Assembly: GCA_964510805.1 (NCBI GenBank)
Contig: CAZEDG010000002.1
Coordinates: 7,653-71,652, forward strand
DNA: 64,000 nt
From: an uncultured Candidatus Saccharibacteria bacterium
GTDB lineage: Bacteria > Patescibacteriota > Minisyncoccia > Phycocordibacterales > UBA5272
Reading direction: 5' to 3'
Positions 686-40,885 of the stretch are shown here, one piece after another. The notes below the pieces were generated by a model that saw only the letters and a program-made list of their open reading frames with translations, was not told the DNA's origin and did not search any database. Made by a program: the position numbers and the translations under genes. Position 1 is the first letter of the stretch, and every line of letters begins with the position of its first letter.

Positions 686-935
686 CAACCAAAAGGGCCA
701 GATGTTAGAAGTTAGACTTTAGATGTTAGAAAATACAGATAAGTTAATAGTTTGTAGTTAATGGTTAATTGTAGAGAAAGAGGAGTGAGGAGCAAAATAC
801 AAGTTAATAGTTTATGGTTAATAGTTACTGGTAAATACAGGAACACAAGAGCGAGGCCGAAGGCCTCGCTCGTGTGTGTGTTGTGTTTTTATCTAAACTC
901 TAAAGTCTAACTTCTAACATCTAGAGGCTACCTAG
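686..935. repeat. MITE-like palindromic intergenic element, copy E1. Inverted AT-rich arms at 694-716 and 908-932; central GC hairpin at 849-871.
   Basis: The arm agatgttagaagttagactttag is the reverse complement of ctaaagtctaacttctaacatctag. The centre is gagcgaggcc-gaag-ggcctcgctc. It also contains ttaatagttaatgg-type subrepeats. Confidence 0.8.
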
Positions 936-2688
936 TCTTCGCCTCTGCGACACCAATCACTGATTCTTTGAGTGCAACAATCACTGAAGTAAGTGATTGT
1001 TTTGCGCTATCTAGAATAGCACTGAAGTTAAGGTTAACCGCTGGTGGGGTGGCAGGGACAACATCGAATGAAAGACCTCCAACATCAGTGTCATAATCTT
1101 GTGTATGCAGAGTATGGCCAGGAAACCCATACCAGTAATAACTAAGTGTTTGTCGTGTACCAAGTGTATGAGTTCCCGCCGAAGCTGGTGCAGTTAAACT
1201 AAAACTAAATGGAAGAGTATATATATCACCAGAACCAACAAATGTCGGGGAACCGAGATTGCCAGTATTTACAAAAAATAATCCTGGAGGTGGGTTACCA
1301 GCATCAAATGTCGAATTATACGCACCATCACAGTCCCCTTCATCAGAACCTCCATAACCCGCATCTGTTTCGAGCAAAAGACTTCCTGATACTGTCATAG
1401 AATCTCCTGGAGCATAAGTTGGGTTCGTGCCGATAGATATTGTACACCAAAAAGAAATCTCACCCATTCTCCCCCATGTCGAAGAATAAAGAGTAAGCGC
1501 CTCCCCCTTCCCCACCGACATCATACTCATCGCAAGGAAAAACATAGATACTGATGCAACCTTTGCAAGCTTGCCACCTGATACTTTGCGAATAATAAGT
1601 GAAGCGATAATGATAAGAGCAAGTACAGCAATAAGGATATACATAAGTGTTGTGTTATTAGATTGTGGAGTAACTTCTTTCTTAGCAACACGAATCACGG
1701 AGAAGTTATCGGTCTTCTGGTCGAGACGATTGTTATCTTTGTCAAAGAGAGCAAGCGTAATTGTACCCTCCTTACATGTCGCCTTAAGTGTATCTTCGAT
1801 CACAGGAGTATCAAGATCTTTGTGTCCTTGGCCACACGGTGCACCACTCTTGTCCTTAAGCGTATACGTTGCTTTTGACCCCTTAAAAGGAGAAGCTCGT
1901 ACTGTAGCAACAAGGTTGAGTCCGTCTTTACCTTCGGTAACAGCAAGACTCTTAATGATTCCGTATGCACCAGGAACAAATATGTTAGTAAGACTTGTCT
2001 CCTTGGTCTTCTCATCCTTCACTACGAACACTCCACGCTTCACATCACTCTTAAGTGTAAAAGTCTTAGTCTCTCCTTTCTTAACCGTTGTTGTAGCAGA
2101 GAGAAGCGCTGTAGGACTAAAGAGTGCTTCATACTCGGCATAAGAGATTGACGCATCAGCTTTGAAGGTACAGGTTACCTTAAGAGCATCTTTTACTTGA
2201 GCACAATCAATGATAGTGCTTGTATTCTTAGGAACAAGATCCTTTGCAAGAATAGACACAGAGTATCTAAGTCCAGCATCACTCTCAGCAACGAGAAGCA
2301 CTTGTACCTTAGACGCATTAAGAGGAGGAAGGGTGTAGGTAAAAGGCTTGTAGATCATCTCTCCTTCCTTAAGAGAAGGAACAATGCCAAGCCTCTCATA
2401 CGAAATCTGCTTATGGGTAGTCGTGTCCACAACCACAATACCGTACCCTATACCATTCTGCATTCCCATATTGCTCATGATATTGAATCCTCCAGTGTAG
2501 GTACCGTTGGATTCCTTGAAGGTAACATCAACCACACGTACATCAGCAATAACTGATACTTTTGTCTTAGACACCGCACCTGACGGTGGTTGAGGGGCTC
2601 TTGTTTGTTGTGCCGGCGCTTGCGCATACACAAACGATGTTGCTAATAATAGGTAGGTAGAAATAATAAAGGTTGTGGACTTTTTCAT
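928..2688 (-). CDS. Secreted/surface protein of unknown function, copy A (586 aa). It has a signal peptide and a central transmembrane segment.
   Basis: Long ORF. The N-terminus MKKSTTFIISTYLLLATSFVYAQAP looks like a signal peptide. It has a hydrophobic helix MYILIAVLALIIIASLIIRKV and a Gly/Ser/Thr-rich C-terminal domain. The + and - ORFs nested inside are shadow ORFs. Confidence 0.7.
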   Translation of the reverse strand: MKKSTTFIISTYLLLATSFVYAQAPAQQTRAPQPPSGAVSKTKVSVIADVRVVDVTFKESNGTYTGGFNIMSNMGMQNGIGYGIVVVDTTTHKQISYERLGIVPSLKEGEMIYKPFTYTLPPLNASKVQVLLVAESDAGLRYSVSILAKDLVPKNTSTIIDCAQVKDALKVTCTFKADASISYAEYEALFSPTALLSATTTVKKGETKTFTLKSDVKRGVFVVKDEKTKETSLTNIFVPGAYGIIKSLAVTEGKDGLNLVATVRASPFKGSKATYTLKDKSGAPCGQGHKDLDTPVIEDTLKATCKEGTITLALFDKDNNRLDQKTDNFSVIRVAKKEVTPQSNNTTLMYILIAVLALIIIASLIIRKVSGGKLAKVASVSMFFLAMSMMSVGKGEALTLYSSTWGRMGEISFWCTISIGTNPTYAPGDSMTVSGSLLLETDAGYGGSDEGDCDGAYNSTFDAGNPPPGLFFVNTGNLGSPTFVGSGDIYTLPFSFSLTAPASAGTHTLGTRQTLSYYWYGFPGHTLHTQDYDTDVGGLSFDVVPATPPAVNLNFSAILDSAKQSLTSVIVALKESVIGVAEAKTR

Positions 2689-2699
2689 ACTACTTAGTA

Positions 2700-2920
2700 T
2701 ATATGGAAGAAGATAAGATTAACGAGGAAGTTGTACACAGATGGTAATGAGAGTGAAGAATGAAGTTAAACTAGATGTTAGAAAAGCGGATAACAGACCG
2801 CTCCGCTACAGACAACAGATAATAGACAATACACACGAGCGAGGCCGAAGGCCTCGCTCGTGTGTGTGTTGTGTTTTTATCTAAACTCTAAAGTCTAACT
2901 TCTAACATCTAGAGGCTACC
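2700..2920. repeat. MITE-like element, copy E2. It has a variant left arm (acagataacag type). The hairpin at 2837-2859 and the right arm at 2896-2920 are identical to E1.
   Basis: gagcgaggccgaaggcctcgctc followed by ctaaactctaaagtctaacttctaacatctag is identical to 849-932. The left part carries a gcggataacagaccgc palindrome. Confidence 0.7.
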
Positions 2921-4676
2921 TAGTCTTCGCCTCTGCGACACCAATCACTGATTCTTTGAGTGCAACAATCACTGAAGTAAGTGATTGTTTTGCGCTATCT
3001 AGAATAGCACTGAAGTTAAGGTTAACCGCTGGTGGGGTGGCAGGGACAACATCGAATGAAAGACCTCCAACATCAGTGTCATAATCTTGTGTATGCAGAG
3101 TATGGCCAGGAAACCCATACCAGTAATAACTAAGTGTTTGTCGTGTACCAAGTGTATGAGTTCCCGCCGAAGCTGGTGCAGTTAAACTAAAACTAAATGG
3201 AAGAGTATATATATCACCAGAACCAACAAATGTCGGGGAACCGAGATTGCCAGTATTTACAAAAAATAATCCTGGAGGTGGGTTACCAGCATCAAATGTC
3301 GAATTATACGCACCATCACAGTCCCCTTCATCAGAACCTCCATAACCCGCATCTGTTTCGAGCAAAAGACTTCCTGATACTGTCATAGAATCTCCTGGAG
3401 CATAAGTTGGGTTCGTGCCGATAGATATTGTACACCAAAAAGAAATCTCACCCATTCTCCCCCATGTCGAAGAATAAAGAGTAAGCGCCTCCCCCTTCCC
3501 CACCGACATCATACTCATCGCAAGGAAAAACATAGATACTGATGCAACCTTTGCAAGCTTGCCACCTGATACTTTGCGAATAATAAGTGAAGCGATAATG
3601 ATAAGAGCAAGTACAGCAATAAGGATATACATAAGTGTTGTGTTATTAGATTGTGGAGTAACTTCTTTCTTAGCAACACGAATCACGGAGAAGTTATCGG
3701 TCTTCTGGTCGAGACGATTGTTATCTTTGTCAAAGAGAGCAAGCGTAATTGTACCCTCCTTACATGTCGCCTTAAGTGTATCTTCGATCACAGGAGTATC
3801 AAGATCTTTGTGTCCTTGGCCACACGGTGCACCACTCTTGTCCTTAAGCGTATACGTTGCTTTTGACCCCTTAAAAGGAGAAGCTCGTACTGTAGCAACA
3901 AGGTTGAGTCCGTCTTTACCTTCGGTAACAGCAAGACTCTTAATGATTCCGTATGCACCAGGAACAAATATGTTAGTAAGACTTGTCTCCTTGGTCTTCT
4001 CATCCTTCACTACGAACACTCCACGCTTCACATCACTCTTAAGTGTAAAAGTCTTAGTCTCTCCTTTCTTAACCGTTGTTGTAGCAGAGAGAAGCGCTGT
4101 AGGACTAAAGAGTGCTTCATACTCGGCATAAGAGATTGACGCATCAGCTTTGAAGGTACAGGTTACCTTAAGAGCATCTTTTACTTGAGCACAATCAATG
4201 ATAGTGCTTGTATTCTTAGGAACAAGATCCTTTGCAAGAATAGACACAGAGTATCTAAGTCCAGCATCACTCTCAGCAACGAGAAGCACTTGTACCTTAG
4301 ACGCATTAAGAGGAGGAAGGGTGTAGGTAAAAGGCTTGTAGATCATCTCTCCTTCCTTAAGAGAAGGAACAATGCCAAGCCTCTCATACGAAATCTGCTT
4401 ATGGGTAGTCGTGTCCACAACCACAATACCGTACCCTATACCATTCTGCATTCCCATATTGCTCATGATATTGAATCCTCCAGTGTAGGTACCGTTGGAT
4501 TCCTTGAAGGTAACATCAACCACACGTACATCAGCAATAACTGATACTTTTGTCTTAGACACCGCACCTGACGGTGGTTGAGGGGCTCTTGTTTGTTGTG
4601 CCGGCGCTTGCGCATACACAAACGATGTTGCTAATAATAGGTAGGTAGAAATAATAAAGGTTGTGGACTTTTTCAT
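2916..4676 (-). CDS. Secreted/surface protein, copy B. It is 100% identical to the protein encoded at 928..2688.
   Basis: The ORF-track translation is identical over all 586 aa. Nucleotides 2837-4733 are identical to 849-2745. Confidence 0.7.
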   Translation of the reverse strand: MKKSTTFIISTYLLLATSFVYAQAPAQQTRAPQPPSGAVSKTKVSVIADVRVVDVTFKESNGTYTGGFNIMSNMGMQNGIGYGIVVVDTTTHKQISYERLGIVPSLKEGEMIYKPFTYTLPPLNASKVQVLLVAESDAGLRYSVSILAKDLVPKNTSTIIDCAQVKDALKVTCTFKADASISYAEYEALFSPTALLSATTTVKKGETKTFTLKSDVKRGVFVVKDEKTKETSLTNIFVPGAYGIIKSLAVTEGKDGLNLVATVRASPFKGSKATYTLKDKSGAPCGQGHKDLDTPVIEDTLKATCKEGTITLALFDKDNNRLDQKTDNFSVIRVAKKEVTPQSNNTTLMYILIAVLALIIIASLIIRKVSGGKLAKVASVSMFFLAMSMMSVGKGEALTLYSSTWGRMGEISFWCTISIGTNPTYAPGDSMTVSGSLLLETDAGYGGSDEGDCDGAYNSTFDAGNPPPGLFFVNTGNLGSPTFVGSGDIYTLPFSFSLTAPASAGTHTLGTRQTLSYYWYGFPGHTLHTQDYDTDVGGLSFDVVPATPPAVNLNFSAILDSAKQSLTSVIVALKESVIGVAEAKTR

Positions 4677-4739: not shown

Positions 4740-4852
4740 TAACTAGATGTTAGATATTAGATATTAGACTTTAGATATTAGAAAATACAGATAAGTTAAT
4801 AGTTAATAGTAAACACAAGAACACAAGAGCGAGGCTGTAGGCCTCGCTCTTT
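4740..4852. repeat. MITE-like element, copy E3. This is a half element: a left arm and a hairpin with a tgta loop, with no right arm.
   Basis: ctagatgttagatattagatattagactttagatattagaaaatac ... gagcgaggctgtaggcctcgctc at 4827-4849. Confidence 0.65.
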
Positions 4853-5122
4853 GAAGTTAAGAAACCAGAGGGCTTGCCTCTCTGTTTCAATCGGGATTAA
4901 CCCATTTGTATTCTCAGTATATATCTTACAAGGTATTTGTCGAATTACTATTCTTCTCCTATTTTATCTTCTCCTATTTTAAAATAGTTTTCATAATATC
5001 GAGATTAAGTAAAAAAGCCCCCAACGAAGACGGAACTTCATAAGGGTCTTTTTCGTAGTGATGTAGGTAGTATACACCTATTTAGAAATAAAAAAGGATA
5101 TTCCACATGCTACAATAAAAAT

Positions 5123-6998: not shown

Positions 6999-9900
6999 TT
7001 GTACATTAACATGATGAATTTTATTAACAAAGTTTTCCTGGGAAGTATGTTTGTAATCGCATTACTTCTTCTGTCATCTCATATTGAAATAGTCTATGCA
7101 GGCAATACAAAAACTGCAACATATGGAGACCCTCTACAACTTAACTATAATACTTCTGGAGTAAATAGTTGTAACAATATAGATGTTCCTGGAGGTGGCG
7201 GGTATGCACTAAATGGATCAGTTTCAGCAAACTCTTCGGGTAATTTTGATCCTGGCAACGCTTCTGTTGGTGGTATTTTTACTCTTACTTGTATAGCCAC
7301 AAACGGATCAGGCCCAGCGTCAGACTCTGCCACCCTCACCGTTAACCCTCTCTCTTGTTCCCCTGGTCAATACACCACAGGATCATCGTGTGTTAATTGT
7401 GGTCAAGGATACTACTGTCCCGGAGGAACAACAGCTCGACAAAATTGTGAACCAGGATATTACTGTCCAGGGACAACCGAATCAGATCACACCCCTTGCT
7501 TAGGAGGATGGTCATCTGGATGGAATTCTACCGTATGTAACCCACCATCATGTTACGCTGGAGAGTACTGGGGAGGTTCCTCGTGTCTCACTTGTACAGC
7601 AGGTAACTACTGTCCAGGAGATCAAACCTCTCACCCTTGTGCCGATGGATATACTTCTTCAGGAGGAGCGTCGAGCTGTTCTCCTCGTTGTACTCCAGGT
7701 AACTACTGGACCGGTGGATCAGGTGGATCCTGTGCAACATGCCCTCAAGGAAAAACATGTGATGGTACCACTACTCAGACACCCTGTCCTGCAGGAAAGA
7801 TATGTGATCTAGGTACTGCTCCTGGTGGCGGAACTCTCTGTACTGTAGGAAACTACTGTCCGTCTGGCACAACCCCTGGAGGAGGAGTTCAACCGCCACA
7901 AGCGTGCGGTGGCGGAATGACTTCTAACCCTGGTGCCACCAACTCTAGTCAATGTTTCCTCCCAAGTTGTTCTCCTGGGCAATACCTCAACGCTTCTTCT
8001 TGTGAGCAATGTACCGCAGGATACTGGTGTGATGGAAGTGGTTCACGTACTCCATGTTCAGCAGGAACATACTGTCCAGCAGGGACAGAACCAAGTGGAG
8101 TAAACGGTCCAAAAACATGCCCTCAAAATAGTTACTGTCCTGCACAATCAGGATCCCCTACTTCATGTGAAACTGTTGGTGCCGGATATGTAACCAATAG
8201 TGGAGGCGCAACCAACGCAGGACAATGTCACGCGCCGTCGTGTACTTCAGGTGACTATTGGAACGGATCATCCTGTACCACGTGTACCGCAGGATACTAT
8301 TGTGATGGAACAAGCGGAGGAAGAACTCCATGTCCGGAAAAATTCTATTGTGGACCAGGGACTACAGAACCAACTAATCCATCTAATCCTCCTCGGACAT
8401 GTACCGCTGGATATATGTGTGACGCAGGTACCACAGACTCTGGGGCAGGAAGTCCTACTCCATGTACTCAAGATCACTTCTGTACGGGGGGAAACTCAGG
8501 TCCAAGTGGATCAAACCCTCCAACGGCCTGCTCAACAATTGGTACGGACTTTGTAACAACTGGAACAGGCGCGACAGCGTCTACTGATTGTCATTTGCCA
8601 TATTGTCCATCTGGTAACTACTGGAATACAGGTACTCATGCTTGCGCTACTTGTCCAGAGGGAAAAATCTGTGACGGAACAAGTGCACCTCAACCATGTA
8701 CAGCAGGATATTATTGTCCAGCAGGAACAAAACCAAGTGGTGTAGATGGTCCAAGGAACTGTCCGGTAGGATCATGGTGTGATGGAAATGACGGTAGTGG
8801 TGGCGGTAACACTTCTAATAATGGTGGCTACCCTCCGCAACCATGTTTAGGAGGACTTACTTCTCCAGAAAACTCTATTTCTTCTGGTGCATGTCGTCCA
8901 CCGACATGTCCTTCTGGAGAATACTGGAATAGCACCGCTAGTTCATGTAAACCATGTACTTCTGGTAATTACTGTGGTGGAGATGGAACACAAACTCCAT
9001 GTCCTCCAGGATTCGTATGTGGTCCAACTACAACACAACCAGGTGGAACAAACCCGCCACACTCATGTCCTGCAGGATCTTCCTGTCCTGGTGGAAACAC
9101 CGATCCGGCAGACACTGACACTAACACCAATCCGCCTATCGTCTGTACTGCTAACCACTACTGTCCAACGGGACCAATTATTACCGATCCAGGAACAGAT
9201 AACCCTCTTCCTTGTCCAGAAGGCAAATGGTCAACCGTTGGATCTTCACAACTATCTGACTGTCAGTCATCTAACCCAAGTGGGCCAGACTTAACTATTG
9301 ATACTATCTATCCAACAACTGTGACATCAGGTGTAATGACTACCTTCTATACCACCATTGAGAACAGAGGTACGACTAATACCGGGGCATCATTCTATAA
9401 CCTTGTGTACTTTGCAGATCAAACAGATGGCAATGGAACTATTTCTACAACAACTCCATACAACGGTCTCTACCCTGCATACTATACCGGCAAGATGGGA
9501 ATACTTGGGGTAAGCGAAGCGACAACAACATCAGCACGTCACGCATTCACTGCACCTGGATCAGTAAAATTCTGTACAGACAAGCAAAACCAAAATGATG
9601 CGACCGGGCTTGTAAACGAAGGAACAGGAGAAAACAACAACTGTACCGGATGGATCAATATCGCCATCTCAGGAGTAAGTTCTTGTTCCCCTGGAATGTA
9701 TAACAACGGCAGTTGTGTTGCTTGTCCTCCAGGTAACTTCTGTTCAGGAGGAACTACTCCTTCCCCATGTCCTTCTAACACCTACTGTGACGGTGCTGGC
9801 CCTGGCGGAATCGGTAACACCCCTCCTGGTGGAATCTATCCTCCTGTATCATGTAGTGGTGGATTCGTCTCTCCGCAAGGATCAGGTAGTTCAGGATCTT

Positions 9901-10910
9901 GTGTCTCAGGCGGATCGCCATCTGGTACCCTTACCTCATCATCTAACTCATGTACTATTGCAACAGAAGACTCAACATGTGATGTAACCATGAGCTGGTC
10001 AACCAACTCACCTGTTGGTACAACAGAACTTATTCGCGACGGGCAGGTTGGAGCTCCTATTCCTGACGCTGTTGGTAATAACGTCTCTGATCAACTGATC
10101 CATGTTCCATACGAATCAGATGGTACAGTAGTCTACCAAATCTATAACAACAGTACGTCTCTTGCTTCGAAGTCAATCAATGTAAGTTGTGAGGCCGGAG
10201 CAAACAAATATGATACAGTATCAGGAACATGTGCTGACCCACAAGTGAACGGACTCATTGTAAGAGGTAACTACTATGATGACCCTGGTCATATCGAGTT
10301 CAAGTGTGGAGGATCAGATTCATACGAAGTAAGAATGGATCCAACTGGAGCAAACACTCTTGTACCTGGAGGAAGCGGAGTAAGTACTGGCGATAATCAA
10401 CTTCACAGTGTTTCGGTAAGCACAACACAGGATTATAAAATCATTTGTAAAAAAGGAAGTGTCGAAAAAACAATGACTACATCCTACACAAACCCAGCAG
10501 ACCGCCCACAGGTCGCACTCTCCTTCACCGCCGTGCCTAAGACTATTGAAGTTGGTGGCAAGGTAGTACTCAACTGGGATATCACCTATCCTGCACCTGC
10601 GTGTGTAATGACTGCACAAGTAGTATGTCCTAATGGTACCTGTAACCAGACACTGACAAGTTACCAGGCAGAGCTTAATGCAATGATTCAGTCAGGAAGA
10701 GTTGACCAAGTAGCAGGAAGTCAAACAACTCCAAGAACTATCGCGTCTTCTATCAGTACCGTAACCCCTGGTCACGAAACCACTGATCAGAAAGCAATCG
10801 GCAAGAAGACACTCAGTTCTGTACAAGGAACCACCGACTTCACGATTGACTGTGGAGGGAACAAGAAAGCATCTACTCGTGTCCGTGTTACAAGTAGCAA
10901 GGAGAACTAA
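6999..10910 (+). CDS. Giant secreted cysteine-rich repeat protein (1303 aa). It has about 20 CxxGxYC-type repeats of the ephrin-receptor-like/GCC2-GCC3 style, and C-terminal beta-rich (CARDB/Ig-like) domains.
   Basis: N-terminal signal/TM FLGSMFVIALLLLSS. Reiterated C-SPGQY..GSSC..C..GYYCPGGT units. PDLTIDTIYPTTVTSGVMTTFYTTIENRGTTNTG is CARDB-like. Confidence 0.7.
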   Translation: MYINMMNFINKVFLGSMFVIALLLLSSHIEIVYAGNTKTATYGDPLQLNYNTSGVNSCNNIDVPGGGGYALNGSVSANSSGNFDPGNASVGGIFTLTCIATNGSGPASDSATLTVNPLSCSPGQYTTGSSCVNCGQGYYCPGGTTARQNCEPGYYCPGTTESDHTPCLGGWSSGWNSTVCNPPSCYAGEYWGGSSCLTCTAGNYCPGDQTSHPCADGYTSSGGASSCSPRCTPGNYWTGGSGGSCATCPQGKTCDGTTTQTPCPAGKICDLGTAPGGGTLCTVGNYCPSGTTPGGGVQPPQACGGGMTSNPGATNSSQCFLPSCSPGQYLNASSCEQCTAGYWCDGSGSRTPCSAGTYCPAGTEPSGVNGPKTCPQNSYCPAQSGSPTSCETVGAGYVTNSGGATNAGQCHAPSCTSGDYWNGSSCTTCTAGYYCDGTSGGRTPCPEKFYCGPGTTEPTNPSNPPRTCTAGYMCDAGTTDSGAGSPTPCTQDHFCTGGNSGPSGSNPPTACSTIGTDFVTTGTGATASTDCHLPYCPSGNYWNTGTHACATCPEGKICDGTSAPQPCTAGYYCPAGTKPSGVDGPRNCPVGSWCDGNDGSGGGNTSNNGGYPPQPCLGGLTSPENSISSGACRPPTCPSGEYWNSTASSCKPCTSGNYCGGDGTQTPCPPGFVCGPTTTQPGGTNPPHSCPAGSSCPGGNTDPADTDTNTNPPIVCTANHYCPTGPIITDPGTDNPLPCPEGKWSTVGSSQLSDCQSSNPSGPDLTIDTIYPTTVTSGVMTTFYTTIENRGTTNTGASFYNLVYFADQTDGNGTISTTTPYNGLYPAYYTGKMGILGVSEATTTSARHAFTAPGSVKFCTDKQNQNDATGLVNEGTGENNNCTGWINIAISGVSSCSPGMYNNGSCVACPPGNFCSGGTTPSPCPSNTYCDGAGPGGIGNTPPGGIYPPVSCSGGFVSPQGSGSSGSCVSGGSPSGTLTSSSNSCTIATEDSTCDVTMSWSTNSPVGTTELIRDGQVGAPIPDAVGNNVSDQLIHVPYESDGTVVYQIYNNSTSLASKSINVSCEAGANKYDTVSGTCADPQVNGLIVRGNYYDDPGHIEFKCGGSDSYEVRMDPTGANTLVPGGSGVSTGDNQLHSVSVSTTQDYKIICKKGSVEKTMTTSYTNPADRPQVALSFTAVPKTIEVGGKVVLNWDITYPAPACVMTAQVVCPNGTCNQTLTSYQAELNAMIQSGRVDQVAGSQTTPRTIASSISTVTPGHETTDQKAIGKKTLSSVQGTTDFTIDCGGNKKASTRVRVTSSKEN

Positions 10911-10954
10911 GGCTAGTAATTCGTTATTAGTTATTCGTAATTAGTAAATACTAA

Positions 10955-11240
10955 TATAACAAAAGAGCGAGGCCTTCGGCCTCGCTCTTGTGTTATATTC
11001 TGCATTTTATCTTCATTCTTCATGCTTCATTCCTCTTTCTCTACCATTAACCATTAACTATAAACTATTAACCTTGTATTTTGCTCTTCATTCTTCATGC
11101 TTCATTCCTCTTTCTCTACCATTTACCATTCACTATAAACTCTTAACTTATCCGTATTTTCTAATCTCTAAAGTCTAACGTCTAATATCTAGTGTCTAGT
11201 GTCTAACCTCTAATATCTAAAGTCTAATATCTAGTCTTCC
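10955..11240. repeat. MITE-like element, copy E4, in opposite orientation (cttc loop). It has an internal tandem duplication of about 65 bp and an extended right arm.
   Basis: Hairpin gagcgaggccttcggcctcgctc at 10965-10987. Two tandem copies of cattcttcatgcttcattcctctttctctaccattaaccattaactataaactattaacc at about 11022-11150. ctaaagtctaacgtctaatatctag-type repeats at 11168-11235. Confidence 0.75.
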
Positions 11241-11293
11241 TCCCCTCTTCATTCTTCACTCTTCTCTCGTATCTTCTATGGTATACTTTTCTC

Positions 11294-11665
11294 ATGTTCA
11301 ACATCTGGCCATACTTACTTCGTCTTGCGGTAGCACTGTACTTCATCTACCCTCACGCGCTTGCCCTTTCTGAGGGTGTTAAGAAGGCCCGCATGGCTCT
11401 TTTCGAATGTCTCTATCAATCAATCAAGATCTCCGAAACTGTCACCTTCACCCTATGGCATGCATTCTTCATCTTTCTTGGTGTGCTTGTACTCATCTGG
11501 CCACGACCGATACTCCCTCTCCTTGTAGTACTTATTGTCCTTGCTTCCACACTCTACATTAACTTCTCTACTGGTAACTTCACAAGCGCAAACATGCTCA
11601 TCTTTGTCCTTATCTTAGTCACCCTCGCACTCATGATCTACAATGCACGACCACAGTTCAGATAG
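11294..11665 (+). CDS. Small multi-pass membrane protein, hypothetical.
   Basis: The ORF is 123 aa with 3-4 hydrophobic helices. Confidence 0.5.
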   Translation: MFNIWPYLLRLAVALYFIYPHALALSEGVKKARMALFECLYQSIKISETVTFTLWHAFFIFLGVLVLIWPRPILPLLVVLIVLASTLYINFSTGNFTSANMLIFVLILVTLALMIYNARPQFR

Positions 11666-11782
11666 CGATGAATATTTCTGTTTCCAAAAAAAAATTTGAC
11701 ACAAAATTAAATATATTGTAGTCTCTATTTAGGCCGTACACCTTTGATGAACCTGAACTCAAACTCGTAAGGAGGAAGAGCT

Positions 11783-12061
11783 ATGCCTAAAAAGGCAGAT
11801 ATGTCCTTCTGGAAAACCTCTAACAATCTAGTTAGATTCCTGCAAGGAGATGCAGAAGCGTCTTTAGACAGCTATCAAAAAGCACTTGAACAAAAGATGG
11901 AAAGTCATCGTCTTGCAAGTGAACACGAACTTGCAGAAAACCTTGCAAAACTTCTCAGTGAAGTCATAGCACTGCGTCAAATGCAGTTGCACTTATCAAT
12001 GACTCTTGTTGCCAAAGGAATGGAACCTTACACAGAAGATGTGACGACAGGGCTCCATTAA
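11783..12061 (+). CDS. Hypothetical small helical protein.
   Basis: The ORF is 92 aa and is preceded by a strong SD, aaggaggaagagct-ATG. Confidence 0.5.
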   Translation: MPKKADMSFWKTSNNLVRFLQGDAEASLDSYQKALEQKMESHRLASEHELAENLAKLLSEVIALRQMQLHLSMTLVAKGMEPYTEDVTTGLH

Positions 12062-12148
12062 CCATGCCAAGAGCAAGAAAACAACCCCTCCATAAAGAAG
12101 AGGGGTGTTTTGTTTTTTAAGAAAAGTATTATACTTAATAGTATTATG

Positions 12149-12514
12149 TCAATCGAACACACACCCACAAACACAAATGAAAAGGCTATTGAGCCTGTAC
12201 TCTCAAATAAAGTAGAAGCACAGAAACTGCTTCTAGAAATAGAAGAATTAAGAAGTCGTATCACATCATTAGAAGCGCAAACAGCATCTGCGACAATGGA
12301 ACTAGACAATGCGTTAGCTTCTAAGGATCGATCAAAAGTAGGGGCCCTTCAAAAAATTATTGCTCTAAATAATACTGAAAGAGGAAAGCTAAACCTTGAA
12401 CTTATTAAAAAAGAAGGAGAGTTACGAGAGAACACTGAAGCGCTTGATAGAAAATATGCAGTGAAGGAAAACGATATCTGGGCAGGGAGAGACACTGAGC
12501 GTAGAAGTAACTAA
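12149..12514 (+). CDS. Hypothetical coiled-coil protein.
   Basis: The ORF 12110..12514 has an internal ATG at 12149 (MSIEH...). LLLEIEELRSRITSLEAQ shows a heptad pattern. Confidence 0.45.
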   Translation, partial: SIEHTPTNTNEKAIEPVLSNKVEAQKLLLEIEELRSRITSLEAQTASATMELDNALASKDRSKVGALQKIIALNNTERGKLNLELIKKEGELRENTEALDRKYAVKENDIWAGRDTERRSN

Positions 12515-15189: not shown

Positions 15190-15194
15190 CTGGA

Positions 15195-15365
15195 AACTAG
15201 ATGTTAGATATTAGACTTTAGAGATTAGAAAACACGGATAAGTTAATGGTTAATAGTTAATGGTTAATAGTAAATACAAATACACAAAGAGCGAGGCCTT
15301 CGGCCTCGCTCTTGTATTTGTATTTTTATCTAGAGCCTAAAGTCTAATATCTAACATCTAGTTTA
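15195..15365. repeat. MITE-like element, copy E5. It is complete: left arm, hairpin at 15289-15311 and right arm at 15337-15361.
   Basis: ctagatgttagatattagactttagagattagaaaacac ... gagcgaggccttcggcctcgctc ... ctaaagtctaatatctaacatctag. Confidence 0.8.
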
Positions 15366-15419
15366 ACTTCACTCCTCATTCTCTACAATTAACCATTAAC
15401 TACTTTGTCGTACCTTATC

Positions 15420-15800
15420 CTCAAAGTGCATCCACCTGGACCAGGAACCTGCGGACCAGTCTTGTATACTAAGACGTATTTTTTATGCACTCCTGTCTTA
15501 TAAACATGGTGCGCCCACCTGGACTCGAACCAGGGACCAGTCGTGTATACTAAGTCGTATTTTGATTTCATTCGTACCTTATCCTCAAAGTGCATCCACC
15601 TGGACTCGAACCAGGGACCAGTCGTGTATAAGACGACGGCTCTACCAACTGAGCTATGGATGCACTTTGTTGACAATGTACTCATTTATCAAAATAAGAC
15701 GACGGCTCTACCAACAAAGCTTAGGCGCACTATGTTTATAATCCCCTCGTTTTCAAAAATAAGACGACGGCTCTATCTGCAAAACTTAAATCCAACAAAA
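15420..15800 (-). repeat. Cluster of partial tRNA copies around the tRNA above: two degenerate 3' halves and two degenerate 5' halves.
   Basis: 3'-half copies are at about 15430-15480 and 15505-15560; the latter reads ...CCTGGTTCGAGTCCAGGTGGGCGCACCA with an encoded CCA. 5'-half copies are at about 15700-15740 and 15755-15800 (aagacgacggctctacc...). ORFs 15389..15685 and 15543..15869 are artefacts of this array. Confidence 0.6.
15591..15663 (-). tRNA. tRNA with anticodon UAU (predicted tRNA-Ile, AUA-decoding; tentative isotype).
   Basis: The reverse complement folds as acceptor GCATCCA/TGGATGC, D-arm GCTC-AGTTGGTA-GAGC, anticodon stem GTCGT/ACGAC with loop CTTATAC, variable loop TGGTC, and T-arm CCTGG-TTCGAGT-CCAGG, with discriminator A. 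No CCA is encoded. Confidence 0.55.
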
Positions 15801-15987
15801 CCTTACAATCCTCACTCACAGAAAAGTAGTATATCAAAAAACAGCGTCTTTTTCTACATGAGCGACTAAACCAAATACCAACTTAAAAAATGCAGTTCTT
15901 CAGAGTCTATTGCAAAACTCTACAAAACCTTTATCATAGAAAGAGTCACCTCATACGAAGGTGATACAACACACTCAGGAGCAAGCA

Positions 15988-16212
15988 ATGGCAAAGAACT
16001 TGACCGCAGGAGATTCCTGCGATCGATTCCCTGGAGATATGCGCCAACTCATTCGAGAACAGGTGCGCTCACGGAACACCGAAGGAGTGCACGGCGGAAG
16101 CCATCTCTCGGACCATCGAGCCGTCGGCGCATCAACAAGTCCTGAAGACCGTGAGGCACTCAACCGCTTCATGGACCTCTCTTCAGGAAACAACCCTTGC
16201 TCACTGATGTGA
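15988..16212 (+). CDS. Small GC-rich ORF (75 aa) or structured small RNA of foreign composition. Coding status is uncertain.
   Basis: About 55-57% GC over about 250 bp in a genome below 40% GC. SD caggag is 6 nt before the ATG at 15988. A terminator ccccgcccc-acaa-gggcgg followed by ttctttat lies at about 16207-16235. Confidence 0.3.
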   Translation: MAKNLTAGDSCDRFPGDMRQLIREQVRSRNTEGVHGGSHLSDHRAVGASTSPEDREALNRFMDLSSGNNPCSLM

Positions 16213-16227
16213 GCAACACCCCGCCCC

Positions 16228-16440
16228 ACAAGGGCGGTTCTTTATATGACAGTTGCTAGTAAATAGTTACTAGTTAATAGTAAAAGAACACAAGAGCGAG
16301 GCCGAAGGCCTCGCTCTCTGTATTGATGCCCACCATTAACCATTAACTATAAACTATTAACCTGTATTTTGCTCTTCACTCTTTACACCTCATTCTTCAC
16401 TCTCTTCCTAACGTCTAATATCTAGTGTCTACCCCTACAC
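16228..16440. repeat. MITE-like element, copy E6.
   Basis: Hairpin gagcgaggccgaaggcctcgctc at 16294-16316. ccaccattaaccattaactataaactattaacc subrepeat. Right arm ctaacgtctaatatctagtgtctac. Confidence 0.75.
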
Positions 16441-18959: not shown

Positions 18960-19351
18960 GGGGGGTGTACTTTGGCTTTGATAATAAGAATATGTCTTGT
19001 GTGCTGTATCGAGATCGCCTAAGCACTCGTTAACGTTTAGGTACCCATGTTGCAAAAACAACTGGCAAGGCTATTCCTTCACCATATATGGCAGGAATGG
19101 TTCCAGCATTCGCCTAAATTACTGGCCAATCTGGTGTCTCCTTCTATCGTATCTACGGATAGATTGTAGGCAATATAACAGTAGAGGTAGATTATCTTGT
19201 TGCATAGCAAAATAATCGAAATAATTATGCTATACCTATGATGCTTTTGTTTGCTTCTGATATCATGGCGCGAAACACACTAAGCAAACTATATACAGTA
19301 GAAACATTCTTCATACCTTGTTACACGCGGGTTCGAATCCCGCCACCTCCA
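18960..19351 (+). ncRNA. ssrA: tmRNA (SsrA).
   Basis: 5' GGGGGTG pairs with 3' CACCTCC and includes the G3:U wobble. The 3' tRNA-like end is GCGGGTTCGAATCCCGCCACCTCCA. An internal reading frame ...GKAIPSPYMAGMVPAFA-TAA at 19064-19117 is the putative tag, with a possible GCA resume codon at 19052. No CCA is encoded. ORF 18997..19215 is spurious. Confidence 0.8.
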
Positions 19352-19354
19352 CTG

Positions 19355-19555: not shown

Positions 19556-19795
19556 ATGTACTATGTCTATATCTTACTAAGTCAGAAAGACAGCAGTCGA
19601 TATGTTGGAACAACAGAAGATTTAAAGAAGAGAATTAAGGAACATAATTCTGGCAATTCAAAGTATTCAAGCAGTAAAATGCCTTATATTTTGAAATGGT
19701 ACTGTGCATTTGATAATAAAGAAATGGCTTATAAATTTGAAAGATATCTTAAACAAGGGTCTGGCCATGCATTTACAAGTAAACACTTGATTTAA
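19556..19795 (+). CDS. GIY-YIG nuclease-domain protein (small, stand-alone).
   Basis: YYVYILLSQKDSSRYVGTTEDLKKRIKEH fits GIY...YIG with a following R...H/N. It is AT-rich. Confidence 0.6.
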   Translation: MYYVYILLSQKDSSRYVGTTEDLKKRIKEHNSGNSKYSSSKMPYILKWYCAFDNKEMAYKFERYLKQGSGHAFTSKHLI

Positions 19796-21297: not shown

Positions 21298-21900
21298 AGG
21301 GAGAAATGGCTGAGTGGGTCAAACGTAAACTGCTTTACGTTTAACGATAAGCATGAAGAGCTCTTCATGCGCAATCCGGCAAACACGAAGCCATTGTTCC
21401 GTAGGACGACAAATAGTCCCGAAGTAGTGCAAGGACTTATATTTGGAGAAATGGCTGAGTGGTTGAAGGCACCTGACTCGAAATCAGGCATAGGAGCAAT
21501 CCTATCGTGGGTTCAAATCCCACTTTCTCCGCAGATTGATACGCAGTGAAAATCTGCGGAGAAAGTGGTGCCATGCTCACAAGCATGGTACGTGGGATTT
21601 GAACGAAACGCCGGTCTACGAAAATGAGATGTAAAAATTGAGTGCAGTATTTTTACATCTCATTTTTGTCGACGTTTCTCGGGGTCGAGAAGTTGAGTGT
21701 TTTCTGAACAACAACGTTGTAAAAGAAAATACCAACTTGGTGACCAATCCCACTTTCTCCGCAAAATAATGAATCTGAAGCGAATGCTTCAGATGATTAT
21801 ATTTTGCGAGAGAAAGTGGGATTTGAACTGAGTCCGATGCGAAGCCGGTGTATGTCCTCATACATCGTGAGGACGAGGCTTAGGCGAAAGTTAAGAGTGT
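21298..21900. repeat. Array of partial copies of tRNA-Ser ends in both orientations around the intact tRNA-Ser.
   Basis: A 5'-end copy ggagaaatggctgagtgggtcaaacg at 21302-21327 carries a hairpin gcatgaagagctcttcatgc. The inverted T-arm copy gtgggatttgaac is at about 21590. A 3'-end copy aatcccactttctccgca is at about 21748. The inverted copy gagagaaagtgggatttgaactgagtcc is at about 21810. Confidence 0.6.
21445..21531 (+). tRNA. tRNA-Ser (anticodon CGA).
   Basis: GGAGAAA-TG-GCTG-AGTGGTTGAA-GGCA-CCTGACTCGAAATCAGG, a long variable arm, T-arm GTGGGTTCAAATCCCAC, acceptor TTTCTCC and discriminator G. Confidence 0.8.
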
Positions 21901-23312: not shown

Positions 23313-23470
23313 TATAGAGTTTAGATATTAGACTTTAGATTTTAGGTAAACATAAGAGCGAGGCCTACGGCCTCGCTCTTATGTTCTTGTATTTACTATT
23401 AACTATTAACTATAAACTATTAACTTATCTACATTTCCTAATACCTAAAATCTAACGTCTAACATCTAGT
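23313..23470. repeat. MITE-like element, copy E7, lying between convergent genes.
   Basis: gagtttagatattagactttagattttagg ... gagcgaggcc-tacg-gcctcgctc at 23356-23378 ... ctaaaatctaacgtctaacatctag. Confidence 0.8.
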
Positions 23471-24046
23471 TTACAGCCTCATCTCCCTTTCACCGCTTCC
23501 TTCTTGGTCTTGTACCATTTTGATAAGCTTCTCGACTAGCACCTTCGGATCTTTTTCAAAAATAACATTAGGGTTAGTTCTATTACTATTCTTAATAATA
23601 TCCTTAATCACTTCATCCGTGGTCCATTCACCTTCTAGAATACCAAGTGGCATATTTGCCTCCCATGCAACAGTAAACTCATGAATAGTTCCTATTCTCC
23701 CACACCCAATCACAATTGCATCAGAAGATCTTACTAACATAAGATCTCTTCCAGGGAACCCGAAGCCTGTATAGATAACAGTATCCATCGCCTTAAGAGG
23801 AAGCCTGTAGACTTCTAGGTGTTCTTTCTTGCTCGCAGCAGGAGAAAGGCCAAAAGAAAAACCCCCTGCCTCCTTAGCTCCTTCCGCTGCGTAGAGAGGG
23901 AATCCACTCGTTGCTCCTGTAATAATTTGTGCACCTTGTCGTGCTATCTCTCTCCCTAACTCTTTAGCAATTGGGATAACAGAAGGTCCACAGTGGGCGA
24001 TTTCTGCCGCGCCAGACACACTGATTGTTATTCTCGCTGATTTCAT
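23471..24046 (-). CDS. LOG/TIGR00725-family Rossmann-fold nucleotide-binding protein.
   Basis: GIGTIHEFTVAWEA fits the LOG PGGxGTxxE-like motif. The protein is 191 aa. Confidence 0.5.
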   Translation of the reverse strand: MKSARITISVSGAAEIAHCGPSVIPIAKELGREIARQGAQIITGATSGFPLYAAEGAKEAGGFSFGLSPAASKKEHLEVYRLPLKAMDTVIYTGFGFPGRDLMLVRSSDAIVIGCGRIGTIHEFTVAWEANMPLGILEGEWTTDEVIKDIIKNSNRTNPNVIFEKDPKVLVEKLIKMVQDQEGSGEREMRL

Positions 24047-36631: not shown

Positions 36632-37186
36632 CTACAACTGCATCTCTTTAAGAACATGCTGAAGATGGGTGCGGACTACCTTTTCGTTAAGCACTAATCT
36701 TGTATAGAGTTCATCAAGTGAAAGCGTGTGATATTCTTGTATCCCTTTAACCCCAAGCGTTGTAATATCGATATACCCAAGATCAGCAAGAATAATACAA
36801 TAAAGAAGGGTTCTAGCGAACAAGTCACCGTAGGAAGAACTTCCTTTAAAAAAAGAAAGCAATCTATCATAAAGTAAGCTGTGTGATCCTTCACCCTTGA
36901 TAAATCTTTTAAGAAGCTGAGTTCCTTCCTGAAGGTATCTAAAACTTTGACTATCTTTTTCGGCACCAACAATTCTCCAAACCTCTTTACCTTTTACAAG
37001 AGTAAGTAGCGTCACCGAACGAGGAAGCACATGCGGGCGTAACTTACTCTCAAGTTTCCTGATACTCTTGGCGTGACACATAAGAAGTCCGAACTCTCGT
37101 GTAAAAATCTTAAACACACGATCATGTTCTCCTTGATCGTACATCTCAAGCACAATACCCTGTGTCACATATTTCTCAATCGCCAT
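36632..37186 (-). CDS. recO: DNA repair protein RecO (short form).
   Basis: The N-terminal OB-fold pattern QGIVLEMYDQGEHDRVFKIFTREFGLL fits RecO. Confidence 0.6.
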   Translation of the reverse strand: MAIEKYVTQGIVLEMYDQGEHDRVFKIFTREFGLLMCHAKSIRKLESKLRPHVLPRSVTLLTLVKGKEVWRIVGAEKDSQSFRYLQEGTQLLKRFIKGEGSHSLLYDRLLSFFKGSSSYGDLFARTLLYCIILADLGYIDITTLGVKGIQEYHTLSLDELYTRLVLNEKVVRTHLQHVLKEMQL

Positions 37187-40100: not shown

Positions 40101-40643
40101 CATCTTGCTTCCTTCATAGGCAAGCTTCTTCTCATAGAGAGACTTCCAGGCAAACCAGATACTCTCCGTATAGGTTGCGTCCATTGTCTTATATGGATGA
40201 CTCATGTCAGCCCATCTTCCAAGACGAGGAATTATTTTTTTCCATTCCTCTTCATACTGAAGCACACTTGCGTATGCATCAGCATTGAACTTATCGATAC
40301 CAAACGCTTCGATGTCTTTTTTGCTTGCAAGACCGAGCTTCTTCTCAATGAGATTCTCAATCGGAAGACCATGACAATCCCACCCCCATACACGACGAAC
40401 CGAATTACCTCTCATTGTCTGATAGCGAGGGATGAGATCCTTCACTGTTCCTGCCATAAGAGAACCATGATGAGGAAGACCTGTTGCAAATGGAGGACCA
40501 TCATAAAAAGAAAAAGTTCCTTGTGGTTCACCTCCTCCCGGCTGTTCGATAGACTTCTCGAAAATATGATTCTCTTCCCAAAAGCGAAGTGCCTTCTCTT
40601 CTTTTTCTGAAACAGAGAGTGGTTTTTGGTTATTGTCTTGCAT
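37176..40643 (-). CDS. ileS: Isoleucyl-tRNA synthetase (type 2) carrying an inserted histidine-phosphatase (PGAM-like) domain.
   Basis: PHHGS (HIGH). CP1 editing region WTTTPWTLPGNTALA. KLSKS-type KMSKS region GKKLSKSLNN. HRPYID. The ORF-track start at 40685 is TTG inside the leader terminator; the ATG at 40641-40643 (MQDNNQ) is preferred. Confidence 0.85.
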   Translation of the reverse strand: MQDNNQKPLSVSEKEEKALRFWEENHIFEKSIEQPGGGEPQGTFSFYDGPPFATGLPHHGSLMAGTVKDLIPRYQTMRGNSVRRVWGWDCHGLPIENLIEKKLGLASKKDIEAFGIDKFNADAYASVLQYEEEWKKIIPRLGRWADMSHPYKTMDATYTESIWFAWKSLYEKKLAYEGSKMMHICPRCETPLAQSEVGLEYTDVTDLSVTAEFELEEEKGTYVLAWTTTPWTLPGNTALALHKDIVYVKVKSTQEGITKCYILAKSKVEEYFKDNESKEIVGEFPGSTLVGKKYLPLFPYFKDKELEHKENIWKIWHADFITEDAGTGIAHEAPAFGDEDMQLAKEHNIPVIKHVKMDGTFTDDVEDFKGLKVKKAGDTQSTDVEIIKWLAHNGKLFEKHKIVHSYPLCWRCKTPLLNYATSSWFVDVPKMKEKLLKENSAIGWTPEHIRDGRFGKWLEGAREWAVSRSRYWGAPLPVWKNHDGSKVHVVGSLKELASCATKKPKNTYFAMRHGESVFNVLDRLDSLGDETNTLTEKGIEQAVLAGNKIQELGVDVIITSPLLRTRETSAIIAKGTQATIVVDERLREFHFGEYESMNATTFRSIRSIHEHLNERVPGGESFRDGAHRFMQVVASCEEKYEGKKILFVTHGSMVYMGIHEAELATSEEIIANKHKEEGLNVHNGQVISFVPASVPRDATGAINLHRPYIDGVELIVGGEVYTRISDVFDCWFESGSMPFASIHYPFENKDLFKEAYPATFIAESMDQTRGWFYSLINLGVGLFDIAPYKHVICNGLINASDGKKLSKSLNNYTDPMLLVERFGADAFRLYLMSSPVVKGESINFSDKELDEVYKRCIMRFDNVVALYKMGNVQVQAGTSSSNPLDRWMISRVHELVKEATDGYDAYKLDEATKGIDQIVDDLSIWYTRRSRDRLKGLTGEEDEYEAYSTLRYVLLTLAKTVAPVLPFLAERTYQELRGDYASVHLEKWPEQGFIDKELIASMKEVRELVSLGLMKRTEHKLSVKQPLSSVTFNKEVDPELIFLIEEELNVKEVFYDKNQKEDVVLDVTITEALKREGDIRKIQRGLQELRKEHNLSSSETVNSIALSIELSDEEIYDLKKVVRAEEIIYDKDCKGKVIELSSSSVFASLTLGHGD
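38540..39150 (-). other. Histidine phosphatase (phosphoglycerate-mutase-like, RHG motif) domain inserted in IleRS.
   Basis: FAMRHGESVFN...ITSPLLRTRETS...FVTHGSMV. About 205 aa lie between ...IGSLKEL and DxHRPYID, where typical IleRS has a linker of about 15 aa. Confidence 0.65.
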
Positions 40644-40659
40644 GGTGTTTGTAGTATCG

Positions 40660-40885
40660 ATAAAAATAATAAAGCCCTCACACAAAGACTATCTTTGTGC
40701 AAGGACGAGTGAGATCGTGGTACCACCTTGCTTTACTTCTCTTCGAAGTCTTATTTAGTCGGGTTCTACTTGTCTTACATAGGACTTATGTATTAGTCCT
40801 GTTACAAAAATAGTAAGAGGTTCTTCCCACACCAAGGAGTGATTAGTTCCTTCATCGTGTATATATCTTTATACTAACAAAAAGA
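40660..40885 (-). promoter_or_regulatory. T-box-like riboswitch leader of ileS.
   Basis: On the minus strand: a GA-motif stem I region gatgaagg; the T-box-like box gcaaGGTGGTACCAcg (RC of 40716-40731); a terminator cacaaaga-tag-tctttgtg with extended stem (RC of 40676-40704) followed by a U-tract about 20 nt before the ATG. Confidence 0.5.

Follow-up and report, generated by a model that had tools for sequence, protein, structure and literature searches.

Gene neighbourhood and the tRNA-Ile(UAU) gene

The window, meaning the whole 64-kb stretch of DNA that was analysed, carries a tRNA-Ile gene with a UAU anticodon in a neighbourhood comprising recG (with an inserted PD-(D/E)XK domain), ftsH, smpB, a tmRNA gene, and infC. 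ARAGORN called tRNA-Ile(tat) at 15590–15663 on the minus strand of the 64-kb window, and Rfam placed an RF00005 match at 15591–15663 on the same strand with 68.5 bits against a gathering score of 29; the two methods agree with the initial annotation that a genuine tRNA with anticodon UAU lies at 15591–15663. Its acceptor stem is GCATCCA/TGGATGC with discriminator A, and CCA is not encoded. The second and last tRNA called by ARAGORN in the 64 kb is tRNA-Ser(CGA). The nearest RecG homologs belong to Nomurabacteria/Paceibacteria-type CPR bacteria. RecO and SSB are encoded in the window along with RecG, and heptamer repeats are present there as well. These repeats had prompted the idea of a cyanobacterial origin, which was rejected because the RecG homologs and the relatives are CPR/Patescibacteria, a group of ultrasmall bacteria.

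AUA accounts for 9.3 per 1000 codons in the window's ORFs, or 15% of isoleucine codons, and the live gene is therefore needed. An Ile-type tRNA whose anticodon is UAU, in a window that uses AUA codons, would fit tilS-independent decoding, and no TilS domain was detected among the ORFs scanned in the 64-kb window. The isoleucyl-tRNA synthetase (IleRS), encoded at 37176–40685, gave a weak C-terminal match to DUF5915 (E = 4.5e-6). The UAU anticodon had been described as uncommon, which holds for bacteria generally (PMC3575796) but not for the CPR lineage. A tRNA-pattern scan of GTDB returned at least 120 matches, and those listed were almost all from Patescibacteria; the 92 usable tRNA-Ile(UAU) loci form a census that is pattern-biased and has no non-CPR control. 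Among the matches listed, 79 of these 92 loci bear a CPR label and 1 of 92 a non-CPR label. The live tRNA is 100% identical at L002, L087, L090, L110, and L154 (five species; three-digit L numbers denote individual loci), and eight further loci match it at 95% identity or more. Given the CPR labels, the five identical tRNAs, and the AUA usage, UAU appears to be the lineage's normal AUA decoder. In Mycoplasma mobile and other bacteria that lack tilS, a UAU anticodon of the unmodified type likewise reads AUA in place of lysidine-CAU in a reduced genome (PMC3575796); the likeness rests on the tRNA and codon use, and nesting has no counterpart in that work. Nothing relevant on tilS or UAU in CPR bacteria turned up in the searchable literature.

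Concentric half-copies of the tRNA gene

Read along the minus strand, the live gene is enclosed by two 5' halves (L3 and L2) and two 3' halves (R2 and R3) in the concentric order L3-L2-[tRNA]-R2-R3, with 5' halves only upstream and 3' halves only downstream. The features of the locus are, in that order:

15828..15856, minus strand: promoter-like site preceding the outermost shell, with the elements TAGAAA-17-TATACT and a TG (extended -10), from a consensus scan
15759..15793, minus strand: L3, 5' half of the outermost (putatively oldest) shell, ending ...GTCGTCTTAT at the anticodon
15729..15758, minus strand: shell-2 cassette leader, 30 nt, pairing with the trailer after R2 (inverted repeat I11)
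15694..15728, minus strand: L2, 5' half of shell 2, GCGCCTA allele, ending ...CTTAT and without U8 and A14
15664..15693, minus strand: live cassette leader, 30 nt, the 5' strand of a conserved stalk
15591..15663, minus strand: live tRNA-Ile(UAU) gene, called by ARAGORN and by Rfam
15550..15590, minus strand: live cassette trailer, 41 nt, comprising the 3' stalk strand and then the conserved junction motif AAAATACGACTTAG
15507..15549, minus strand: R2, shell-2 3' half that runs from TATAC... to TGGGCGC-A-CCA
15469..15506, minus strand: shell-2 cassette trailer, 38 nt, ending AAAATACGTCTTAG
15427..15468, minus strand: R3, outermost-shell 3' half whose T arm is rearranged (TGGTCCGCAGGTTCCTGGTCCAGG)
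15408..15426, minus strand: trailer after R3, the same as the first 19 nt of the live trailer
15287..15313, no strand assigned: bidirectional terminator hairpin from a terminator scan, inside a 170-nt palindromic repeat element (15194–15364)

The two degenerate 5' halves and two degenerate 3' halves reported initially are real: all four share the orientation of the live gene, and local alignment of half-copies against the flanks gave scores of 23 and 36, against a 99th percentile of 12 in the reverse-strand null. The 5' halves end with the anticodon TAT and the 3' halves start with it, so that five TAT triplets stand in register (15761–59, 15696–94, 15630–28, 15549–47, and 15468–66) at spacings of 65, 66, 81, and 81 nt. 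The sequence GAGCCGTCGTCTTAT occurs exactly three times.

The halves of shell 2 match one another. L2 is identical to the live 5' half at 30/36 positions and R2 to the live 3' half at 38/40, and R2 terminates in GGGCGCACCA, which includes the encoded CCA that had been noted for one 3' half. Their acceptor strands, GCGCCTA and TGGGCGC, pair at 7/7 positions with two fully compensatory changes relative to the live stem. When L2 and R2 were joined in silico, ARAGORN called tRNA-Ile(tat), and cross-combinations of shell halves joined in the same way yielded no tRNA call. The matched pairing and the renewed call as tRNA-Ile therefore argue that each shell is a former gene split by cassette insertion. 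Shell 2 has lost U8 and A14 from L2 and is therefore most likely dead. In the outermost shell, L3 is identical to the live 5' half at 26/36 positions and R3 to the live 3' half at 36/40 with two indels; the L3 acceptor strand GGATTTA pairs with TGGATGC of R3 at 6/7 positions, and the in silico join of L3 and R3, too decayed, was not called as a tRNA by ARAGORN. The shell types alternate within the window: A-type (L3/R3), B-type (L2/R2), and A-type again (live). Positions 15408–15441, comprising the last 34 nt of R3 with its trailer, are 100% identical to 15572–15605 at the live end and trailer (repeat family D3), a perfect tract that can be read as gene conversion.

Conceivably, the outer halves could be exons that are spliced together once the inner tRNA has been excised, which would make the nest a working split tRNA or one with an intron. 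Insertion beside the anticodon and paired flanks do resemble the situation in archaeal intron-bearing and split tRNAs, joining L2 to R2 gives a recognizable tRNA, and the acceptor part of L2 is identical in the window and at L164. This explanation is nonetheless very improbable: L2 lacks U8 and A14, L3/R3 and many outer halves elsewhere are badly decayed or bear hairpin insertions, inspection of the junctions found no bulge-helix-bulge (the fold has a 9-bp helix whose loop is asymmetric, 2/13 nt instead of 3-4-3), and Rfam gave no group I intron match. Small hairpin insertions in the D and T loops of dead halves occur at many loci.

Leaders, trailers, and transcription signals

The spacers between the nested copies measure 30–41 nt and hold no cargo. 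The initial description of the fragments as stacked without cargo is accurate for these spacers, but each split gene is in fact filled by the next complete tRNA with its paired leader and trailer. The live leader pairs with the live trailer (inverted repeats I8/I9) in a duplex of -19.7 kcal/mol, and seven compensatory pairs keep this stalk, which lies outside the cloverleaf, among the window, L002, L164, and L162 (four species). Duplex energies show strong leader/trailer pairing to be a property of nested cassettes. Together with the seven compensatory pairs, this indicates that leader, tRNA, and trailer form one co-evolved unit. The shell-2 leader and shell-2 trailer pair through I11 (18 nt at 94%). 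The shell-2 leader is homologous to the leader preceding L2 at L164, and the consensus scan found a promoter-like TTGAAA-16-CATAGT inside it. The shell-2 trailer lies within an 81-nt repeat unit 79% identical to the unit holding t1 (family D2), and the junction motif AAAATACGACTTAG of the live trailer recurs at t2 of the window, at t1/t2 of L164, and at L137.

A 441-nt region is predicted to fold into nested helices, the tip being formed by the live cloverleaf (-144.6 kcal/mol, z = -4.4). The site at 15828..15856, a putative promoter, is similar to TGnTATAGT boxes that immediately precede stand-alone tRNA-Ile(UAU) genes in relatives. At the other side, the strong hairpin at 15287..15313 is likely the end of both the nested transcript and recG; the palindromic element around it belongs to a repeat family with more copies in the window. 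The whole nest would probably be transcribed from the outermost promoter, and the long leader/trailer stalk would probably hold the live tRNA together and guide how it is freed from its precursor. An equation of the cassette with the primary transcript was abandoned, because MAFFT gave no support for stand-alone genes having flanks homologous to the cassette leader or trailer.

The GC-rich segment and the search for a recombinase

The GC-rich segment at 15960–16240 had been suggested as a remnant of island cargo. It corresponds to a 74-codon ORF (15988–16212) with a ribosome-binding site and terminator, located upstream of the putative promoter of the nest. L137 encodes a homolog of the 74-residue product (37% identity, tblastn E = 4e-7) between ftsH and another nested tRNA-Ile locus. 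As this is the same place, the GC-rich ORF is a conserved neighbour gene rather than cargo. This small ORF and several other ORFs have no match in Pfam, NCBIfam, or PHROGs. No integrase, transposase, or reverse transcriptase (PF00589 and PF00239 included) was detected in the approximately 60 ORFs of the 64-kb window, and, among the matches listed, no locus has an orphan half that is inverted or more than 700 nt from the gene. The earlier suggestion of integrase activity or decayed islands accordingly finds no direct support here.

Nests in related bacteria

The order recG...tRNA-Ile(UAU)...ftsH-smpB is kept in relatives, in which the nest varies. A plain gene with a TGGTATAGT promoter is present at L004 and L167/L168; one outer shell encloses the gene at L002, L005, L162, and L169/L170; L164 has a homologous multi-shell nest; and L137 has an R shell with the window's trailer family. 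Nests also occur in independent CPR lineages (L063, L074, L105, L107, L116, L121, L123, L125, L148, L152, and L156). The GCGCC allele, which in the window marks shell 2, is the live allele at L005, L152, and L137. The odd T arm of R3 recurs in R halves of L164, L137, and L152.

Three derived shell features are common to the window and L164, namely the junction motif, the odd T arm CAGGTTCCTGGTCCAGG, and the loss of U8 in GCGCCTA-AGCTT. A large part of the structure must therefore be old and vertically inherited, and the number of independent insertions is blurred as a result. R halves of both are mosaics of T arm and acceptor, and these mosaics, with the perfect 34-nt tract, indicate that gene conversion partly homogenizes the shells. 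The 12-nt acceptor/D-stem part of L2 is identical in the window and L164, though it could not have been copied from the live gene.

Orphan halves are found at 21 of the 92 loci among the matches listed: a 5' half upstream at 13, a 3' half downstream at 17, and both at 9. Halves on the wrong side occur at 0 of 92 loci, with reverse-strand matches at 0–1, again among the matches listed. Within the same set of listed matches, presence of a 5' orphan is associated with presence of a 3' orphan (odds ratio 20, p = 1.4e-5, 92-locus census). At L121 the shells read Y-X-Y and at L148 Y'-X'-Y', and in both the inner tRNA is clearly unlike the outer one. Other isoacceptors are also affected: tRNA-Val(GAC) at L074 is a clean nest, and orphan 3' ends lie at Met, Gly, Leu, and Ser genes, including the window's tRNA-Ser(CGA).

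Local duplication might account for such a structure if two independent tandem arrays, one of 65-nt units (leader + 5' half) and one of 81-nt units (3' half + trailer), had grown by slippage or unequal crossing-over and abutted at the anticodon by chance. The regular periods of 65/66 and 81 nt are compatible with this origin, as are L123, where a 108-nt 5' unit and a 67-nt 3' unit each occur in two identical copies, the gene-conversion tracts (34 nt at 100%; mosaic R halves), and loci with 5' orphans only or 3' orphans only. We regard it as unlikely, since duplication cannot make a shell whose halves carry a different, mutually compensated acceptor stem, and leaves the 5'/3' co-occurrence without explanation. 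Nor can it make alternating alleles or inner tRNAs unlike the outer ones; the alternating shell types and the inner tRNAs of L121 and L148 therefore argue against duplication or slippage.

The co-occurrence of orphans also bears on classical island scars, in which integrase-bearing elements would have entered the anticodon loop repeatedly, some carrying a 3' and some a 5' part, and later lost their cargo. The anticodon loop is the commonest attB sublocation, and displaced fragments of both 3' and 5' type are known (PMC4383910). The gene content of the recG–ftsH interval varies among relatives, T-loop-type 3' fragments are found at other CPR tRNAs (L063 Met, L145, and L066), and the R units start with a pseudo 5' anticodon-stem strand. 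Against this, every shell would need paired 5'-type and 3'-type events with the cargo wholly lost each time, whereas the observed co-occurrence is far above that predicted for independent events. Leader and trailer would arise independently, yet they form a co-varying stalk; the intermediate hybrid gene would carry a mismatched acceptor stem; and neither an integrase within the 64 kb nor a distant orphan was found. Island scars are in our judgment an improbable source of the shells. The initial reading of the fragments as a scar of serial integration retains its core, repeated site-specific events at the anticodon, but instead of the classic pile of displaced 3' fragments on one side, at island ends, the locus has concentric shells with matching 5' and 3' halves.

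Junctions and a proposed cassette-insertion model

TAT is present in every junction of the window's clade. On its left, a junction has the B arm (...GTCGTCT) or the P arm, which is conserved (...GAATGAAnnnAAAATACGNCTTAG); on its right, it has B' (ACACGAC...) or P' (TTTTGAnAA...GAG). B-TAT-B' is the live anticodon arm, B-TAT-P' joins a 5' half to a leader, and P-TAT-B' joins a trailer to a 3' half. The fourth combination, P-TAT-P', in which a trailer end, TAT, and a leader start are contiguous, is found at L164 (TTTGCTACGATTAG-TAT-TTTTGACAACGAATGG) and at L169/L170. These four types form the pattern that would be expected, judging from the junction sequences, of Campbell-type integration of a circular or tandem cassette with a 3-bp core. 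P-TAT-P' could alternatively have arisen by a second insertion at an existing left junction.

TAT flanks every insert on both sides as a 3-bp repeat, and the leader start pairs with the trailer end. Conservation of the insert ends does not extend from clade to clade, and 8 additional bases are present at the right end. On inspection the junctions did not fit a Helitron-like or IS200/IS605-like element or a group I intron, given the extra TAT, the lack of a ribozyme, and the lack of conserved ends. Rfam gave only tRNA and tmRNA at gathering scores, with no group I ribozyme core; the insert consists of the tRNA plus 71 nt.

We propose, with a probability of about one in two, that the nest arose as non-autonomous tRNA cassettes were inserted one after another, in a site-specific manner, at the anticodon, with a recombinase acting in trans. 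Each shell would be an earlier tRNA-Ile(UAU) gene split exactly at the anticodon by a complete cassette, composed of a leader of ~30 nt, a tRNA, and a trailer of ~40 nt, and the inserted tRNA would take over the function of the gene that it splits. Because every cassette brings a fresh, intact anticodon arm, it would itself become the next target, giving concentric shells with the youngest gene at the centre. Recombination would be att-like and site-specific, with the three bases TAT as common core: attB would be the anticodon arm, GTCGTCT-TAT-ACACGAC, and attP the joined ends of a putative circular or tandem cassette, ..AAAATACGNCTTAG-TAT-TTTTGAnAA... The enzyme, presumably some kind of site-specific recombinase, would be supplied in trans; a 3-bp core would fit serine-type recombinases better than tyrosine-type ones. 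With one shell in place, outer and inner halves could misalign in homologous recombination or undergo gene conversion, which would add or remove shells and keep parts of them similar to the live gene.

Several observations weigh against cassette insertion. The window's ORFs yielded no recombinase, and no such enzyme could be tied to the nests. The 3-bp core is short for a tyrosine integrase, and ~150 bp would make a very small circle. Conservation of the junction motif AAAATACGNCTTAG is limited to the window's clade; nests of other CPR groups (L074, L148, and L123) have no common ends beyond TAT. A search for an element elsewhere with a matching att core had been suggested; a scan of viral contigs for the predicted free attP gave chance matches only. 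The tRNA-pattern scan of viral contigs returned ordinary phage tRNAs, with one 96% match (L008) in an uninformative context, and a cassette-leader pattern scan of metagenomes returned only L162 and the L002 contig.

The nests might instead have spread by homology, from one accidental primordial nest, through uptake of DNA from a nest-bearing relative with the halves serving as homology arms and no dedicated enzyme. The tRNA core is near-invariant across species and would provide arms of ~35 nt; insertions of the same isoacceptor in the same orientation and position would follow; and gene conversion is clearly active, with RecO, SSB, and RecG encoded in the window. What this does not account for is the first event, nor does it predict the P-TAT-P' junctions, and unrelated nests in distant CPR groups and at other tRNAs also lie in anticodon or T loops. 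We consider such spread doubtful as the origin of the nests.

Comparison with known systems

Among known systems, integron cassettes and IMEX are small units moved by a recombinase encoded elsewhere, with a site formed by joined ends and serial insertion at one site. The nest is like them in its small units, the absence of a recombinase of their own, the proposed joined-ends site, and the proposed serial insertion. Integron arrays, in contrast, grow linearly from attI without nesting, and IMEX use dif/Xer; no attC-like or dif-like site was identified at the locus. Twintrons and nested transposons offer a different parallel, in that an element carrying its own target is re-invaded, leaving a Russian-doll record with the youngest element innermost. 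The nest, as interpreted here, would have the same re-invasion of its own target and the same innermost youngest copy, but twintrons and nested transposons are ribozyme- or transposase-based and span 0.5–10 kb, whereas the nested element is essentially just a tRNA gene.

Tyrosine-integrase islands and prophages resemble the nest, as interpreted here, in their tRNA target, in crossover at the anticodon or T loop, in direct-orientation tDNA fragments, in tandem events, and in preservation of gene function (PMC4383910). In the Islander count, 3' fragments mark 3760 islands and 5' fragments 159, all of which have an integrase; an ordinary island spans kilobases, encodes its own integrase, and has a single fragment at its far end (PMC4383910). 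Islands restore only the displaced part, whereas the insert here, ~145 bp, is a whole replacement tRNA gene; in the nest both old halves are orphaned, no integrase was found in the window, and the copies lie one inside another instead of in tandem.

Archaeal intron-containing, split, and permuted tRNAs, and the model developed for Caldiarchaeum, likewise feature interruption beside the anticodon and pairing of leader and trailer (PMC3293823; PMC3218864). The Caldiarchaeum model also places a tRNA fragment beside a newer gene after a mobile element integrates (PMC3293823; PMC3218864). The archaeal pieces stay functional and are joined by a splicing endonuclease at a bulge-helix-bulge (PMC3293823; PMC3218864); in the nest, by contrast, the outer pieces decay, the host is bacterial, and the insert is another tRNA gene.

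Implications

We found no description of nested tRNA genes in the searchable literature, and there is a real chance that the locus, a case of tRNA-targeted integration on our reading, belongs to a new class of minimal non-autonomous element. The pattern is common among CPR bacteria, and it suggests that small tRNA cassettes enter the anticodon of the gene that they replace. If cassette insertion holds, tRNA genes in the CPR, a large and little-known branch of the bacterial tree, would be turned over by complete replacement genes entering their own anticodons, a mode of replacement and tRNA-gene disruption that likewise lacks a description in the searchable literature, and the shells would be stacked molecular fossils of past tRNA alleles. 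The locus would in that case bear on the old question of how tRNA genes become interrupted beside the anticodon.

More tentatively, and with odds that we put clearly below even, CPR bacteria may harbour an undescribed minimal selfish element: a bare tRNA gene with paired leader and trailer, for which the anticodon arm of a resident tRNA of the same specificity serves as attachment site. It would destroy the resident, make the cell dependent on itself, and offer its own anticodon as the next target. Were this true, many tRNA loci would hold datable concentric fossils, and there would be a bacterial, DNA-level route to anticodon-interrupted tRNA genes.

For annotation, if cassette insertion holds, orphan tRNA halves in CPR genomes should not be taken as island boundaries. 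The conserved stalk of the precursor is a candidate processing signal.

Surroundings of the tRNA-Ile nest

The nest, in which the live tRNA-Ile(UAU) (15591–15663, minus strand) is enclosed by split halves of older copies (shells), is flanked together with a small GC-rich open reading frame by two palindromic elements, one on either side. These belong to a family of intergenic elements in the window, each of approximately 170 nt and comprising heptamer repeats (TTAATGG, TTAGATA) that surround a GC hairpin, AAGAGCGAGGCC...GGCCTCGCTCTT, which also serves as a bidirectional terminator. A single weak match to this family was found in L116, a locus from another genome.

Palindromic elements and the small open reading frame
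~700–924, palindromic element
2817–2912, palindromic element
4741–4853, palindromic element
10915–11233, palindromic element
15194–15364, palindromic element
15988–16212, plus strand, small GC-rich ORF, 74 aa; homologue in L137 at 869–1072 (minus strand)
16250–16431, palindromic element
23315–23476, palindromic element

The small ORF has a GC content of 56%, versus 41% for the window, and family searches with its 74-aa product returned no match. It is kept beside ftsH and the tRNA-Ile nest in a second CPR genome (L137); in both genomes the nest runs in the opposite orientation to the ORF.

Orphan halves and shells in other loci

Many CPR loci (including L125, L002, L156, L074, L107 and L148) carry hairpin insertions of 25–50 nt in the D or T loops of dead tRNA halves, often with GAA-type triloops (GCGAAGC-like). 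These insertions suggest that hairpins tend generally to enter hairpin loops. At L164, leader-like and trailer-like parts are fused (8895–8966) within a 108-nt spacer separating two 5' shells, and a P-TAT-P' junction (trailer end, TAT, leader start) follows; the fused stretch looks like a cassette (leader, tRNA and trailer) from which the tRNA has been deleted.

The tRNA-Ser(CGA) locus

The window's other tRNA, tRNA-Ser(CGA), is likewise accompanied by partial copies, within region 21300–21830. The inverted copies of its 3' end form perfect 18–19-bp hairpins with direct copies.

21300–21325, 5' fragment
21445–21532, tRNA-Ser(CGA)
21551–21604, inverted copy of the 3' end
21728–21763, 3' fragment
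21797–21828, inverted copy of the 3' end

Further proteins and ORFs

928–2688 and 2916–4676, minus strand, two adjoining ORFs, each exactly 586 aa
12529–15189, plus strand, RecG with a PD-(D/E)XK_3 ('GxxExxY') nuclease domain (aa 474–586)
19556–19795, plus strand, stand-alone GIY-YIG nuclease-domain ORF, 79 aa
37176–40685, minus strand, isoleucyl-tRNA synthetase, 1169 aa, with a histidine-phosphatase (His_Phos_1) domain insertion (aa 524–679)

The 586-aa pair, apparently a tandem duplication, had no match in Pfam, NCBIfam or PHROG. In relatives (L002, L005, L165–L170), the region upstream of recG encodes two proteins, one 23S_rRNA_IVP/bAvd-like (116 aa) and the other a giant CARDB protein, and is possibly the target region of a diversity-generating retroelement. 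Within the upstream stretch of the window (6999–12514), ORF 12110–12514 gave no match, and no reverse transcriptase was seen. The nuclease domain of RecG sits as an insertion between the helicase lobes; many close homologues (~720–745 aa) are without it. The isoleucyl-tRNA synthetase also shows a weak C-terminal DUF5915 match, and its domain composition may be relevant to UAU recognition or editing. Finally, the GIY-YIG ORF, which immediately follows the tmRNA gene (18961–19354), is a possible candidate for a structure-specific nuclease.
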